Below, piece after piece: positions 4,408-35,997 of a stretch of 64,000 bases of DNA (its first letter is position 1; each line of letters starts with the position of its first letter). The stretch lies in assembly GCF_058153355.1 (NCBI RefSeq), contig NZ_CM177019.1, one strand, 5' to 3'. The notes beneath the pieces are model-generated. The model saw nothing but the letters and a program-made list of their open reading frames with translations. It was not told where the DNA came from and did no database searches. The translations under genes and the position numbers were made by a program.

Positions 4408-4512
4408 TCCATGCCATATGCGGCGCGAACGCCTTATACGGCCTACAAAAGTTTGCAAATTCAATAAATTGCAGAATTCATGTAGGCCTGATAAGCGAAG
4501 CGCATCAGGCAT
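4408..4512. repeat. REP/BIME-type extragenic palindromes
   Basis: Motifs such as gcggcgcgaacgccttatacggcctac and gtaggcctgataagcgaagcgcatcaggc match the E. coli REP consensus. Confidence 0.75.
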
Positions 4513-9486: not shown

Positions 9487-9577
<91 letters not shown>

Positions 9578-10407: not shown

Positions 10408-11391
10408 TTATTTTACCGTGCCTAAAATTTCGATTTTCGCCACTCTGGCTTTGACTTTACGTGACCAGATAGAGGTAAGAATTGGCACCAGAATCGAAGT
10501 CACAATGACCGCCGTCGCGACCAGCGAAGTTGCTGCCGGAGCCATCGGTTTAAACGCAGGCACCATTTCAGCAATCAGCACAGGTGTCGCTACCGCGGCC
10601 CCTGCCGAACTGGAAGCGGCAATTCCGGCAGTGCCATCGCCACCGCCAATCAATTTATCGGCGATAATCAACGGAATACCGGTCACGATAATTACTGCCA
10701 CACCCAACAGGATCCCCAGCAAACCTGTCTGGGCAATTACAGTCAAATCAATGGTATTGCCCAGCGCGAAGGCAAAGAATGGAATCAGCGTCTGCACCGC
10801 TTTGCTGAAAAATTCTCGTAATTCAGGGTCAAGGTTCCCAAGGGCAAAGCCCACCAGGAACGGTAATACTGCGCCGACGAAAACATGCGGTTCAAACGAG
10901 GCAATCCCGGCAGTGCCCAGAATAATCATCGTCATGAGCGGCCCGGACTCCAATGACATCAACACAAATGCCCCAGCTTCTTCTTTCGTACCGTACTGCT
11001 GCATGATGGAAGCGTAAAGTCCGCCGTTGGTCATATCCATCGCCGCCACCAGCGCCAGCGTTGAAAGTCCGGCAAAGAATCCAACTTCAACACCATGTTC
11101 CGGAATAATGCGCGAGGCAATTGCCGCAACCACCCACGCGACGGCAATTTTTGTTACCACCAGCGTACCGGATTTACGCAATACCGTTCCCGTCGCGCTT
11201 AATTTTATTGACGCCCCCATGCAAAAAAACCACACCGCCAGAATGGGCACCGTACCGGTAATCATCCCGTTGGTGAATGATCCAAAATATTTCCCCGCCC
11301 CCGGCGAGAAGGTGTGGCACAGTGCGCCAAGGAATAGCGGGACGAGCATCATCCCCCCCGGGATTTTCTCAATCGAGCGTTTTATCTGCAT
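10408..11391 (-). CDS. kdgT: 2-keto-3-deoxygluconate permease
   Basis: 327 aa polytopic membrane protein starting [13 protein letters not shown]. Confidence 0.9.
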
Positions 11392-11510
11392 TTCCATCAC
11401 CTGTCGGCATATTTTTAAGGGCTGATGCGTAATTCCTCAACGGAGCATCAGTGTTGATGAAAACGAAGATAGACATTCATTTAATCAATAAAAGTGATCA
11501 AAACCACATC

Positions 11511-11530
11511 AATTGAAACACTGTTTTATT
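11511..11530. promoter_or_regulatory. candidate KdgR operator upstream of kdgT
   Basis: aattgaaacactgttttatt resembles the KdgR palindrome (TGAAACA..TGTTTCA-like); about 120 bp upstream of the kdgT start. Confidence 0.45.
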
Positions 11531-11576
11531 TTTATCGGATCATTGTTTTTATTTTGAAATTGATCACAAAAAAACC

Positions 11577-11603
11577 ACCGCCGTTGGCGATGGTTCATTT
11601 TTT
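11577..11603 (-). terminator. sodA rho-independent terminator
   Basis: Minus-strand hairpin ccatcgccaacggcggtgg followed by TTTTTTT. Confidence 0.65.
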
Positions 11604-11650
11604 AAGCTGATATGCGGCGTAAACGCCTCATTGCAGCAGGCGGCAAATGA

Positions 11651-12271
11651 TTATTTTTTCGCCGCGAAACGTGCCGCTGCTTCGTCCCAGTTCACCACGT
11701 TCCAGAACTCTTTGATGTAGTCAGGACGGCGGTTCTGGAATTTCAGGTAGTAAGCATGTTCCCACACATCCAGGCCCAGAATCGGGAAGCCGGAAGCGCC
11801 AGAAATAGCTTCACCCATCAGCGGGGAGTCCTGGTTAGCAGTAGAAACCACCGCCAGTTTATCGCCTTTCAGCACCAGCCATGCCCAGCCGGAACCAAAG
11901 CGGGAAGCTGCCGCTTTCTCAAATTCTGCTTTGAAGTTATCAACGGAGCCGAAGTCACGTTCGATAGCCGCTTTCAGGTCACCCTGTAAGGTGGTGCCTT
12001 TTTTCAGACCTTTCCAGAACAGGCTGTGGTTAGCGTGACCGCCAGCGTTGTTGCGCAGTACGGTTTTCTTGTCTGCTGGCAGCTGGTCCAGTTTGGTGAT
12101 CAGCTCTTCAACCGGCAGGTTGGCAAATTCTGGCAGGCTTTCCAGCGCCGCGTTGGCGTTGTTGACGTAGGTCTGATGGTGTTTGGTGTGGTGGATTTCC
12201 ATGGTCTGCTTATCGAAATGCGGTTCCAGGGCATCGTAAGCATACGGCAGGGATGGCAGGGTATAGCTCAT
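11651..12271 (-). CDS. sodA: Mn superoxide dismutase
   Basis: 206 aa from [20 protein letters not shown]...; metal ligands in conserved context. Confidence 0.96.
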
Positions 12272-29945: not shown

Positions 29946-32900
29946 ATGCAGGTCAGCAGAAGGCAGTTCTTTAAGATCTGCGCTGGCGGTATGGCAGGCA
30001 CCACGGCAGCGGCACTGGGTTTTGCACCCAGCGTAGCACTCGCGGAAACCCGGCAGTATAAACTGCTGCGCACCCGCGAAACCCGTAATACCTGCACCTA
30101 TTGTTCCGTAGGCTGTGGGCTGTTGATGTACAGCCTCGGTGACGGAGCAAAAAACGCCAAAGCATCTATCTTCCATATCGAAGGTGACCCGGATCACCCG
30201 GTCAACCGCGGTGCACTTTGTCCCAAAGGCGCTGGCCTGGTGGATTTCATCCACTCCGAAAGCCGTCTGAAGTTTCCGGAATACCGTGCCCCTGGTTCTG
30301 ATAAATGGCAGCAAATCAGTTGGGAAGAGGCGTTTGATCGCATTGCCAAACTGATGAAAGAAGACCGCGATGCTAACTACATTGCGCAAAACGCCGAAGG
30401 CGTGACTGTTAACCGCTGGCTCTCCACCGGGATGCTGTGTGCTTCCGCGTCGAGTAACGAAACCGGCTATTTAACGCAAAAATTCTCCCGCGCGCTGGGT
30501 ATGCTCGCGGTCGACAACCAGGCGCGTGTCTGACACGGACCAACGGTAGCAAGTCTTGCTCCAACATTTGGTCGCGGTGCGATGACCAACCACTGGGTCG
30601 ACATCAAGAACGCCAACCTCGTCGTGGTGATGGGCGGTAACGCCGCTGAAGCTCACCCGGTCGGGTTCCGCTGGGCGATGGAAGCCAAAATTCACAACGG
30701 CGCGAAGCTGATTGTGATCGATCCTCGCTTTACGCGTACGGCGGCGGTGGCTGACTACTATGCCCCTATTCGTTCCGGTACTGACATTGCTTTCCTGTCA
30801 GGCGTATTGCTGTACCTGCTGAACAATGAAAAATTCAACCGCGAATACACCGAAGCCTATACCAACGCCAGCCTGATCGTGCGTGAGGATTACGGCTTTG
30901 AAGATGGCCTGTTCACCGGCTACGACGCGGAAAAACGCAAGTACGATAAATCCTCCTGGACCTACGAGCTGGACGAAAACGGCTTCGCCAAACGCGATAC
31001 CACGCTGCAACATCCGCGCTGCGTGTGGAACTTGCTGAAACAGCACGTTTCCCGTTATACGCCAGATGTGGTTGAAAACATCTGTGGCACGCCGAAAGAC
31101 GCGTTCCTGAAAGTCTGCGAATACATCGCAGAGACCAGTGCTCACGATAAAACTGCCTCGTTCCTTTACGCGCTCGGCTGGACGCAACACTCCGTTGGTG
31201 CGCAGAACATTCGTACGATGGCGATGATCCAGCTACTGCTCGGCAATATGGGGATGGCAGGCGGCGGCGTTAACGCCCTGCGCGGTCACTCCAACATTCA
31301 GGGGCTGACGGACCTGGGGCTGCTGTCGCAGAGCCTGCCAGGTTACATGACGCTGCCAAGCGAGAAGCAGACCGATCTGCAAACCTACCTTGCCGCCAAC
31401 ACGCCAAAACCACTGCTGGAAGGCCAGGTTAACTACTGGGGCAATTACCCGAAATTCTTCGTCTCCATGATGAAGGCCTTCTTTGGTGATAAAGCGACGG
31501 CAGAAAACAGCTGGGGCTTTGACTGGTTGCCGAAGTGGGATAAAGGCTACGACGTCCTGCAATACTTCGAGATGATGAAAGAGGGCAAGGTCAATGGCTA
31601 TATCTGCCAGGGCTTTAACCCTGTTGCCTCATTCCCGAACAAAAACAAAGTGATCGGTTGTCTGTCGAAACTGAAGTTCCTCGTCACTATCGACCCGCTG
31701 AACACTGAAACCTCTAACTTCTGGCAGAACCACGGTGAGCTGAACGAAGTGGACTCGTCGAAGATCCAGACCGAAGTGTTCCGTCTGCCATCGACCTGCT
31801 TCGCGGAAGAGAACGGTTCAATCGTTAACTCCGGTCGCTGGTTGCAGTGGCACTGGAAAGGTGCGGACGCCCCAGGGATTGCGCTGACTGATGGCGAGAT
31901 CCTCTCCGGTATCTTCCTGCGCTTGCGCAAGATGTACGCCGAACAGGGTGGCGCGAACCCGGACCAGGTGCTGAACATGACCTGGAACTACGCCATCCCG
32001 CATGAGCCGAAGTCGGAAGAAGTGGCGATGGAGAGCAACGGTAAGGCGCTGGCCGATATTACCGATCCGGCAACCGGGGCGGTTATCGTCAAGAAAGGCC
32101 AACAACTTAGCTCGTTCGCCCAACTGCGCGATGACGGTACCACCTCCTGTGGCTGCTGGATTTTCGCCGGTAGCTGGACGCCAGAGGGCAACCAGATGGC
32201 ACGCCGTGATAACGCCGATCCGTCTGGCCTCGGTAACACGCTGGGCTGGGCATGGGCATGGCCGCTTAACCGCCGCATTCTGTATAACCGCGCCTCCGCA
32301 GATCCGCAGGGTAACCCGTGGGATCCGAAGCGTCAGTTGCTGAAATGGGACGGCACTAAGTGGACCGGCTGGGATATTCCGGACTACAGCGCAGCGCCTC
32401 CGGGCAGTGGCGTCGGGCCGTTTATCATGCAGCAGGAAGGCATGGGGCGTCTGTTTGCTCTCGATAAGATGGCGGAAGGTCCGTTCCCGGAACACTACGA
32501 GCCGTTTGAAACGCCGCTGGGAACTAACCCACTGCATCCAAACGTTATCTCGAACCCGGCTGCGCGAATCTTTAAAGACGATGCCGAAGCATTGGGTAAA
32601 GCCGATAAGTTCCCGTATGTCGGAACCACCTATCGTCTGACCGAGCACTTCCACTACTGGACCAAACACGCGCTGTTGAATGCGATTTTGCAGCCAGAGC
32701 AGTTTGTGGAAATCGGGGAGTCGCTGGCGAATAAACTTGGCATTGCTCAGGGCGATACCGTGAAAGTCTCCTCCAACCGTGGCTATATCAAAGCCAAAGC
32801 GGTGGTGACCAAACGTATTCGTACGCTAAAAGCGAACGGCAAAGATATCGATACCATCGGTATTCCGATTCACTGGGGCTATGAAGGTGTTGCGAAAAAA

Positions 32901-33911: not shown

Positions 33912-34543
33912 AACGACGTGACACCATCGTGCGCTACACCGCGCCGGAACGTATCAACCACTGGATCACCGCCTTCTGCTTCATCCTGGCGGCGGTGAGC
34001 GGGCTGGGCTTTTTGTTCCCTTCCTTTAACTGGTTGATGCAAATCATGGGCACACCGCAGCTGGCGCGCATTCTGCACCCGTTTGTCGGCGTGGTTATGT
34101 TTGCCTCGTTCATCATCATGTTTTTCCGTTACTGGCATCACAACCTAATCAATCGGGATGATATCTTTTGGGCGAAGAATATTCGTAAGATCGTCGTCAA
34201 CGAGGAAGTAGGTGACACCGGGCGTTATAACTTCGGTCAGAAATGCGTTTTCTGGGCGGCGATTATTTTCCTGGTCCTGCTGTTGGTGAGCGGCGTGATT
34301 ATCTGGCGTCCTTATTTTGCGCCTGCTTTCTCAATCCCGGTGATCCGATTCGCGTTAATGCTGCATTCATTTGCCGCAGTGGCGTTAATTGTGGTTATCA
34401 TGGTGCATATCTACGCCGCCCTTTGGGTGAAAGGCACAATTACCGCCATGGTGGAAGGATGGGTTACCAGCGCCTGGGCGAAGAAACATCACCCGCGCTG
34501 GTACCGTGAGGTCCGCAAGACAACGGAAAAGAAAGCTGAATGA
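33908..34543 (+). CDS. fdoI: formate dehydrogenase-O cytochrome b556 subunit
   Basis: 211 aa, four TM helices; overlaps fdoH stop. Confidence 0.93.
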
Positions 34544-35469
34544 GTATTCGCATAATCCCGCAAGATGAGCTGGGTTCGAGCGAGAAACGTACGGCGGATA
34601 TGATTCCGCCGTTATTGTTCCCTCGGCTCAAGAATTTATACAACCGCCGCGCCGAACGTCTGCGCGAGCTGGCAGAAAATAATCCGCTGGGTGATTATCT
34701 GCGCTTTGCTGCGCTTATCGCCCACGCCCAGGAAGTGGTGCTGTACGACCATCCGCTGGAAATGGATCTGACTGCACGCATTAAAGAAGCCAGCGCACAG
34801 GGCAAGCCACCGCTGGATATTCACGTTTTGCCGCGTGATAAGCACTGGCAAAAGCTGCTGATGGCAATGATTGCTGAGCTGAAACCTGAAATGAGCGGCC
34901 CGGCGCTGGCAGTGATTGAGAATCTGGAGAAGGCATCAAGCCAGGAGCTGGAAGATATGGCCAGCGCGCTGTTCGCCTCTGATTTCTCGTCCGTCAGCAG
35001 CGATAAAGCGCCGTTTATCTGGGCTGCACTGTCACTCTACTGGGCGCAGATGGCCAATCTGATCCCGGGCAAAGCCCGCGCTGAATACGGCGAGCAACGT
35101 CAATATTGCCCGGTTTGTGGTTCTATGCCGGTGTCCAGTATGGTGCAAATTGGCACCACTCAGGGTCTGCGTTACCTGCACTGCAACCTGTGTGAAACTG
35201 AATGGCACGTAGTGCGCGTAAAATGCAGCAACTGTGAACAGAGCGGCAAACTGCATTACTGGTCGCTGGATGACGAACAGGCCGCGATTAAAGCCGAAAG
35301 CTGCGATGACTGTGGCACTTACCTGAAGATTCTTTATCAGGAAAAAGAACCGAAAGTTGAAGCCGTGGCAGATGACCTCGCCTCTCTGGTACTGGATGCG
35401 CGAATGGAGCAAGAAGGCTACGCCCGCAGTTCCATTAACCCGTTCCTGTTTCCGGGTGAAGGGGAGTAA
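34540..35469 (+). CDS. fdhE: formate dehydrogenase formation protein
   Basis: 309 aa; CxxC pairs ([30 protein letters not shown]). Confidence 0.93.
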
Positions 35470-35593: not shown

Positions 35594-35683
35594 GCAATTA
35601 TTATAAGTTCAAGTAAAACAACCTTGTATTAATACCAGAATAAGGGGATCTGGTTTTTATATTCAAGAATAAAAAATTTTTTG

Positions 35684-35902
35684 TCATTCCTTATGCTCCT
35701 TACACTGATCATCGACACCCACTGTCTCCCCCTTTTGCCTGCCTCCCTTTGCTTTACGCACAGGGAATTGCTGACGTTCCAGATATTGCTCTACCGCTTC
35801 GCGTAAAATTGCAGATCGTGAAACCTTACGCCAGCCCCTAAGCTTGTTCAGCCGTTTAATTGTCTCTTCTGATAAATGAAGAAAAACCGTATTCATCGTC
35901 AT
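35684..35902 (-). CDS. small ribbon-helix-helix (CopG-like) putative regulator of the YiiE/YiiF family
   Basis: 72 aa from ATG at 35902 (MTMNTVFLHLSEETIKRLNKLRGWRKVSRSAILREAVEQYLE...). Which K-12 paralog this is was not resolved. Confidence 0.7.
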   Translation of the reverse strand: MTMNTVFLHLSEETIKRLNKLRGWRKVSRSAILREAVEQYLERQQFPVRKAKGGRQKGETVGVDDQCKEHKE

Positions 35903-35997
35903 TGCCACCACCTAACATATATTACTCATTAATGTATGTGCGAAAATTACGCCGAAAAATCATTTAAAAAAAGCGGATTTTTGCATGCTGTTTTGTT

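Follow-up and report, generated by a model that had tools for sequence, protein, structure and literature searches.

The sodA-kdgT Spacer of Escherichia coli Probably Combines an Intrinsic Terminator of sodA with a KdgR Operator of kdgT

Introduction

Two genes, sodA and kdgT, follow each other on the minus strand of the DNA analysed here, a stretch of 64,000 nucleotides that we call the window. Because sodA lies upstream of kdgT on the same strand, one transcription unit must end and another begin within the 260 bp between the two coding sequences. Which elements of this spacer stop the transcription of sodA, and which ones start and control the transcription of kdgT?

The gene kdgT is part of the classical kdg regulon, together with kdgK and eda, and both the box before kdgT and the terminator of sodA were already known in substance. 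According to later papers that cite the work, among them PMC6958661 and PMC5559549, comparative genomics led to the prediction of a KdgR box upstream of kdgT some twenty years ago. We consider it very probable that the spacer holds two conventional elements, the intrinsic terminator of sodA and the KdgR operator of kdgT, along with a promoter whose layout is the inferred part of this description.

Results and Discussion

The Locus

The sodA-kdgT region was readily placed on the E. coli chromosome. The 321 bases around the palindrome described below are 100% identical to several E. coli strains, and the same region was found in 5,425 of the 5,426 complete E. coli genomes, annotated as sodA and kdgT. 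The gene order in K-12 is rhaT, sodA, kdgT, yiiM, cpxA, and the window shows this region reversed. The positions of the genes and of the elements discussed in this study are collected in Table 1.

No Rfam family reached its gathering score in the sodA-kdgT spacer. The best sub-threshold match was rnk_leader, with 23 bits against a cut-off of 50; this is the level of chance and the identity was rejected. Elsewhere in the window, Rfam matches above the gathering score were naRNA4/CssrE at 9494..9571 (plus strand, between cpxA and yiiM), ES036/CssrF at 4448..4489 (plus strand) and the selenocysteine insertion element SECIS_3 at 30528..30586 (plus strand).

Table 1: Genes, observed elements and putative promoter elements of the sodA-kdgT region (window coordinates).
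Feature	Position	Strand	Evidence or description
sodA CDS (Mn superoxide dismutase)	11651..12271	-	ORF; Pfam Sod_Fe_N and Sod_Fe_C; RefSeq annotation of identical DNA
sodA stop codon TAA	11653..11651	-	
Extra hairpin in the sodA 3' UTR, directly past the stop codon	11606..11637	-	Fold of 11660..11555
sodA intrinsic (Rho-independent) terminator	11568..11596	-	Terminator scan, fold, conservation
CRP-like site 1	11553..11568	-	TGTGA-TCAATT-TCAAA; centre 11560.5, about -101.5 from the inferred start
Candidate auxiliary KdgR-like box, degenerate	11533..11553	-	AATAAAAACAATGATCCGATA; its centre lies 22 bp upstream of that of the main box
KdgR operator, main box	11511..11531	.	AATTGAAACACTGTTTTATTT; on the kdgT strand AAATAAAACAGTGTTTCAATT
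CRP-like site 2	11490..11511	-	Core TGTGG-TTTTGA-TCACT at 11508..11493; centre 11500.5, -41.5 from the inferred start
Inferred kdgT -10 hexamer TATCTT	11466..11471	-	22 nt past TCAC; TAnnnT in 74/75 loci
Inferred kdgT leader, about 68 nt	11392..11459	-	Shine-Dalgarno AGGTGA at 11402..11397
kdgT CDS (2-keto-3-deoxygluconate:H+ symporter)	10408..11391	-	ORF; Pfam KdgT, E 8e-115; RefSeq annotation

The Terminator of sodA

Hairpin terminators after genes of the sodA type are routine. The terminator scan placed one on the minus strand, with a stem-loop at 11596..11572 (GAACCAUCGCC-AAC-GGCGGUGGUUU) that has 11 pairs and the loop AAC and is followed by TTTT in the scan; the U7 tract occupies 11574..11568 of the minus strand. 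The element lies about 55-85 nt past the sodA stop codon. Its 40 nt fold at -15.8 kcal/mol, and the whole 3' region of sodA (fold of 11660..11555) folds better than all 200 shuffles.

The original prediction had a hairpin plus T-tract at 11577..11603 terminating sodA. The hairpin and its assignment to sodA as a terminator held up, but the T-tract had been taken from the wrong strand. The proposed range ends in the plus-strand T-run 11598..11603 and omits the A-run 11568..11574 along with the last two bases of the stem. Because sodA is on the minus strand, the T-run reads as an A-tract in the sodA mRNA, 5' of the hairpin, and we rejected it as the tail of the terminator.

In most respects the element agrees with the canonical intrinsic terminators of E. 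coli, with which it shares the GC-rich stem (8-11 pairs), the loop of 3 nt, the U7 tract and the location soon after a stop codon on the coding strand. It differs from them in that an A-tract precedes the stem, and for this reason it looks bidirectional. On the plus strand a G-U pair of the stem becomes a C-A mismatch; the scan made no call on that strand, where no gene needs a terminator.

A GC hairpin with a T-run was found 44-92 nt past the sodA stop codon in every one of the 29 loci in which sodA lies directly upstream of kdgT. These 29 terminators fold at -12.5 to -26 kcal/mol, and their stem sequences are unrelated between genera. Hairpins that keep their place while their stems diverge are the signature that one would expect of a conserved function. 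We found no entry for the 3' end of sodA in the 3'-end datasets examined (eLife 2021 supplements). The extra hairpin directly past the stop codon (Table 1) is confined to the Escherichia clade, being absent in Citrobacter and others, and its inner stem and loop contain two base differences between the window and K-12.

A KdgR Box Upstream of kdgT

The palindrome aattgaaacactgttttatt, which the original prediction had placed at 11511..11530 and likened to the KdgR operator, is present exactly there. When extended by one base (11511..11531), it shows 2 mismatches to the 21-bp KdgR consensus AAATGAAACAnTGTTTCATTT of Rodionov et al. (2000/2004) as quoted in PMC5559549, and 18 of the 20 positions specified in the quoted form agree. 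Its two 10-bp arms are alike at 8 of 10 positions. No other site on the two strands of the 64-kb window comes within 3 mismatches of the consensus, where shuffled sequences gave an expectation of 0.01; the next-best match has 6 mismatches.

The box was also scored with position weight matrices. The first matrix was built from four K-12 boxes of genes other than kdgT (a pair upstream of kduI and single boxes upstream of tabA/yjgK and kdgK) and was symmetrised. Each of these training boxes is the best consensus match in its own 7-8 kb K-12 locus, and the genes are reported targets of KdgR. With this matrix, which rests on four training sites picked by similarity to the same consensus, the kdgT site scored 31.0 bits and ranked first among 63,980 positions of the window, the runner-up reaching 16.4 bits (14.7 bits lower). 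The poor score that would speak against a KdgR operator was not obtained. The value lies above the leave-one-out scores of the training sites (21.5-29.5 bits). Of 595,759 positions in the other loci scored, among them the training boxes and the kdgT boxes of orthologous loci, only 5 reach it.

A reciprocal matrix was then made from 51 distinct kdgT boxes of genera other than Escherichia. The boxes of kdgK, kduI (two), tabA, ygjV and yeeO were the top hits of their K-12 loci by wide margins. Since the forward scan and the reverse test agree, the kdgT site is, as far as its sequence tells, a full member of the KdgR regulon motif. No convincing box was found before eda, where the best candidate has 8 mismatches and 8.6 bits, though eda is a reported target. 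The box before K-12 ygjV is TTATGAAACGCCGTTTTTTAT (22.9 bits, L087 5789..5809), and that of yeeO, AAGTGAAACCACATTTCAAAT (16.6 bits, L086 5678..5698), lies inside the annotated 5' end of the K-12 gene. In the window itself, a weak KdgR-like match, AAGTAAAACAACCTTGTATTA at 35611..35631, obtained 16.4 and 10.6 bits with the two matrices; it sits in the intergenic gap between the ORFs 34540..35469 (plus strand) and 35684..35911 (minus strand) and is probably due to chance.

Conservation was followed in 80 kdgT loci from different Enterobacterales species, which are related by descent, so that fixed spacings among them partly reflect common ancestry. A box with at most 4 mismatches was detected within 400 bp upstream of kdgT in 55 of the 80 loci, in most cases at a distance of 96-148 bp from the ATG. 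In the window the box is centred at 11521, 130 bp upstream of the kdgT ATG, in agreement with the proposal that it stands at a plausible distance from the gene. In the remaining 6.5 kb or so of each locus, the best consensus match nearly always has at least 5 mismatches. Counting all KdgR-like boxes in the common layout, 75 of the 80 loci carry one upstream of kdgT. The box is retained with or without sodA as the upstream neighbour, and the flanking spacer diverges.

The operator is polymorphic in E. coli at position 11520, where the plus strand reads A in the window and G in K-12. On the kdgT strand, the window box AACAGTGTTTC has a T next to its centre and the K-12 box a C, the T being one step nearer the consensus. 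Among the 5,426 E. coli genomes, 2,088 contain the exact 45-mer with the T allele and 1,894 the one with the C allele; at the same position, the orthologues of other genera have 25 C versus 21 T. By these counts, the position next to the centre of the box is one that tolerates variation.

Control of kdgT by KdgR and, Probably, PlaR

Published expression data are in agreement with an operator at this site. The kdgT mRNA rises in a kdgR deletion on Northern blots (PMC6958661), and kdgT, kdgK and kduID appear as an overexpressed RNA-seq module in an evolved strain without kdgR (PMC6892915), the authors of the latter study calling KdgR a known repressor of kdgT and kdgK. The kdgR gene itself lies beyond the window; 5,424 of the 5,426 complete E. 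coli genomes have it, as almost certainly does the source strain, and the K-12 protein contains the HTH_IclR and IclR_C domains of an IclR-type regulator. Our literature search, which missed the original KdgR operator papers, turned up neither a footprint nor a gel shift that shows E. coli KdgR binding directly to the kdgT site.

Could the palindrome serve another protein? PlaR (YiaJ), a paralogue of KdgR in the IclR family, may bind it as its main or as an equal partner, kdgT being then co-repressed by two proteins that compete for the site or share it. The reported PlaR box, ATnTGAAACnnnGTTCAnTT, is nearly identical to the kdgT palindrome, genomic SELEX gave a PlaR peak at kdgT, and a kdgT probe pair is listed in the gel-shift primer table of the same study, in which all twelve target probes were shifted by purified PlaR (PMC6958661). 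This probe maps to window 11382..11756 and includes the box. The PlaR targets (kdgK, kduI, eda, tabA, ygjV, yeeO and kdgT) are moreover the loci that carry the same motif. However, the gel shifts required 1-5 micromolar protein (PMC6958661), and the loss of kdgR alone clearly derepresses kdgT (PMC6958661, PMC6892915). The box is also conserved in genera that may or may not encode PlaR.

PlaR and KdgR thus have in common a near-identical palindrome and the same target loci, and PlaR binds a fragment containing the kdgT box in vitro (PMC6958661). The two differ in that the primary target of PlaR is the yiaK operon (PMC6958661). Because of the SELEX peak, the shifted probe that spans the box and the near-identity of the PlaR box, it is likely that both proteins use the kdgT site. 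That PlaR should be the main or an equal ligand is a serious possibility to which we give distinctly less weight, and even then PlaR would add to the control by KdgR and not replace it.

A Candidate CRP-Dependent Promoter

Seventy-five loci were aligned on the KdgR box. Downstream of the box, the alignment shows a nearly invariant GATCAC(T)(T/G)TT, with (A/G)TCAC at +20..+23 in 75 of the 80 loci. The hexamer that begins exactly 22 nt past TCAC reads TAnnnT in all but one of the 75 aligned loci. In the -10 element of sigma-70 promoters, conservation is strongest at position 2 (A) and position 6 (T), and the corresponding hexamer of the window, TATCTT, is our candidate for the -10 element of kdgT. 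The matching -35 position is poor (CTTTTA), which is why a generic sigma-70 promoter scan of 11300..11750 found no promoter. Counting 7 nt past the hexamer, we infer a transcription start near 11459; kdgT has no start-site entry in the tables of PLoS Genet 2012, and the eLife 2021 supplements contain nothing on it.

With a start near 11459, TCAC falls at -38..-35, where a CRP site with its centre at -41.5 would have its right half. A CRP-like site is indeed found there (site 2, Table 1). Its right half, GATCACTTTT, is nearly invariant across Enterobacterales and matches the CRP consensus at 9 of 10 positions; its left half is weak, with 2-5 mismatches to the core in orthologues. Another CRP-like site (site 1) has 1 mismatch to the TGTGA-N6-TCACA core, and its GTGA-N6-TCA(A/C) recurs, behind a spacer that varies, in genera that include Escherichia, Citrobacter, Yokenella and Trabulsiella. 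Its offset from the box is not fixed in more distant genera. In the window the two sites flank the operator, 60 bp apart from centre to centre. The CRP core pattern is not enriched in the 64-kb window (22 hits versus 27 expected), so that a hit proves nothing alone. A genomic SELEX study of CRP lists kdgT as a new target (PMC3105977). The layout suggests that kdgT is transcribed from a class II CRP-dependent promoter with its -10 element at 11471..11466, and that the KdgR box, near -62, lies right against the CRP site.

In the putative leader of kdgT, a hairpin CUGAUGC-N-GCAUCAG could form at 11424..11451 (minus strand), but it is not significant, the z-score of the fold being only -1.7. The corresponding stretch of Citrobacter, Kosakonia and Phytobacter differs in sequence but could likewise fold into a hairpin.

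Upstream of the main box, a degenerate KdgR-like sequence (Table 1) coincides with a direct repeat, D1, and obtains 14 bits, the third-best score of the four-box matrix in the window. When offsets from -26 to -18 relative to the main box were compared in the orthologous loci, the best-scoring position was exactly -22 in 64 of 76. A conserved block aAAAc...tCC occupies this offset in most of the loci.

Proposed Mechanism

According to the scheme that we favor, transcription of sodA would stop at the minus-strand terminator, with the stem-loop 11596..11572 and then the U7 tract. In the absence of KDG, a dimer of the IclR-family repressor KdgR would occupy the 11511..11531 box and keep the KDG permease gene kdgT silent. 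KDG derived from galacturonate, glucuronate or pectin breakdown products would free KdgR, and kdgT would be transcribed. The promoter would be of class II, with a poor -35 element, the CRP half-site GATCAC at -40..-35 and a start near 11459.

Simple steric repression does not usually work from a box whose centre is near -62. At kdgT the box would extend from about -72 to -52, with its last base pair in common with the 22-bp CRP site (11511..11490), and since the two sites would share this pair, KdgR may repress mainly by excluding CRP or the alpha C-terminal domain of RNA polymerase rather than by covering the -10 element. The auxiliary box at 11533..11553 may help a second KdgR dimer to bind. 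We therefore propose, tentatively and at a little under even chances, that KdgR acts as an anti-activator from about -62, at the edge of a class II CRP site, and that the second box (about -84, two helical turns upstream) would enable a dimer of dimers. The module formed by the box, GATCAC, 22 nt and TAnnnT seems to be kept across Enterobacterales irrespective of the gene that precedes kdgT.

Repressor boxes usually overlap the -10 element or the start site, and a different promoter would give such an arrangement at kdgT. In this alternative the -10 element would be AAAAAT (11533..11528), the start would lie near 11521 and the leader would be about 130 nt long; CRP-like site 1 would then be centred at about -40, and the box would span -10 to +10, so that KdgR simply occludes the promoter. 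The single mismatch of site 1 to the CRP core and its conservation in the group of E. coli, Citrobacter and Yokenella argue for this arrangement, as do the A/T-rich, -10-like hexamers that precede the box in all orthologues. However, A/T-rich bases before the box belong to the KdgR consensus, and their conservation needs no promoter. The spacing between site 1 and the box varies (+2 in Yokenella, about +23 in Rahnella), and Kosakonia and Phytobacter lack the site altogether; by contrast, 74 of 75 loci keep the TCAC-22 nt-TAnnnT module downstream of the box unchanged. Because the spacing of site 1 is not conserved, we rate occlusion below the class II promoter and regard it as unlikely.

Short A/T palindromes occur often in A/T-rich DNA such as this spacer, but a chance repeat without regulatory role is scarcely credible in view of the one consensus match found against 0.01 expected per window, the gap of about 15 bits to the next-best matrix score, the conservation of the box in 75 of 80 orthologous loci amid a diverging spacer, and the response of kdgT to the kdgR deletion (PMC6958661, PMC6892915); on the conservation and the expression data, we rejected it for practical purposes.

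Comparison with Known Systems

With respect to the preferred reading, a KdgR operator, nothing essential distinguishes the kdgT site from the KdgR operators of Dickeya dadantii (pel, ogl, kduI, kdgT) and E. coli (kdgK, kduI-kduD, eda, tabA/yjgK). Like them, it is an imperfect palindrome of 21 bp in which A/T-rich flanks enclose GAAAC-N5-GTTTC cores, it stands upstream of a gene of the KDG pathway, the cognate IclR-type repressor is encoded in E. coli genomes, and kdgT is derepressed without kdgR. In the kdgT copy, one half-site has A in place of G and one flank has A in place of T, and the box seems to stand near -62, ahead of the core promoter and not over it.

A parallel for the proposed layout exists in Dickeya. 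Antagonism between CRP and KdgR at the pectinolysis promoters of this genus was reportedly described by Nasser, Robert-Baudouy and Reverchon in 1997, as cited in PMC8688573. There, as proposed here, a CRP site and a KdgR box reportedly lie side by side or overlap, and kdgT belongs to the predicted CRP and KdgR regulons of Dickeya solani. The difference is that at E. coli kdgT the arrangement, with CRP at -41.5 and KdgR at about -62, is deduced from conservation, as are the position of the promoter, its CRP class and the mechanism of repression.

Conclusions

The finding has little importance beyond annotation, the operator and the terminator being ordinary elements that are already catalogued. 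It can be seen as a positive control, in which a reading of the DNA from its letters alone found a true operator and a true terminator and made one strand error. The one modest addition is the conserved promoter layout, which suggests competition between KdgR and CRP at kdgT and gives the exact bases to mutate. A possible use lies in the engineering of E. coli for the utilization of sugar acids from pectin or alginate, for which the control of KDG uptake by KdgR is a known bottleneck.
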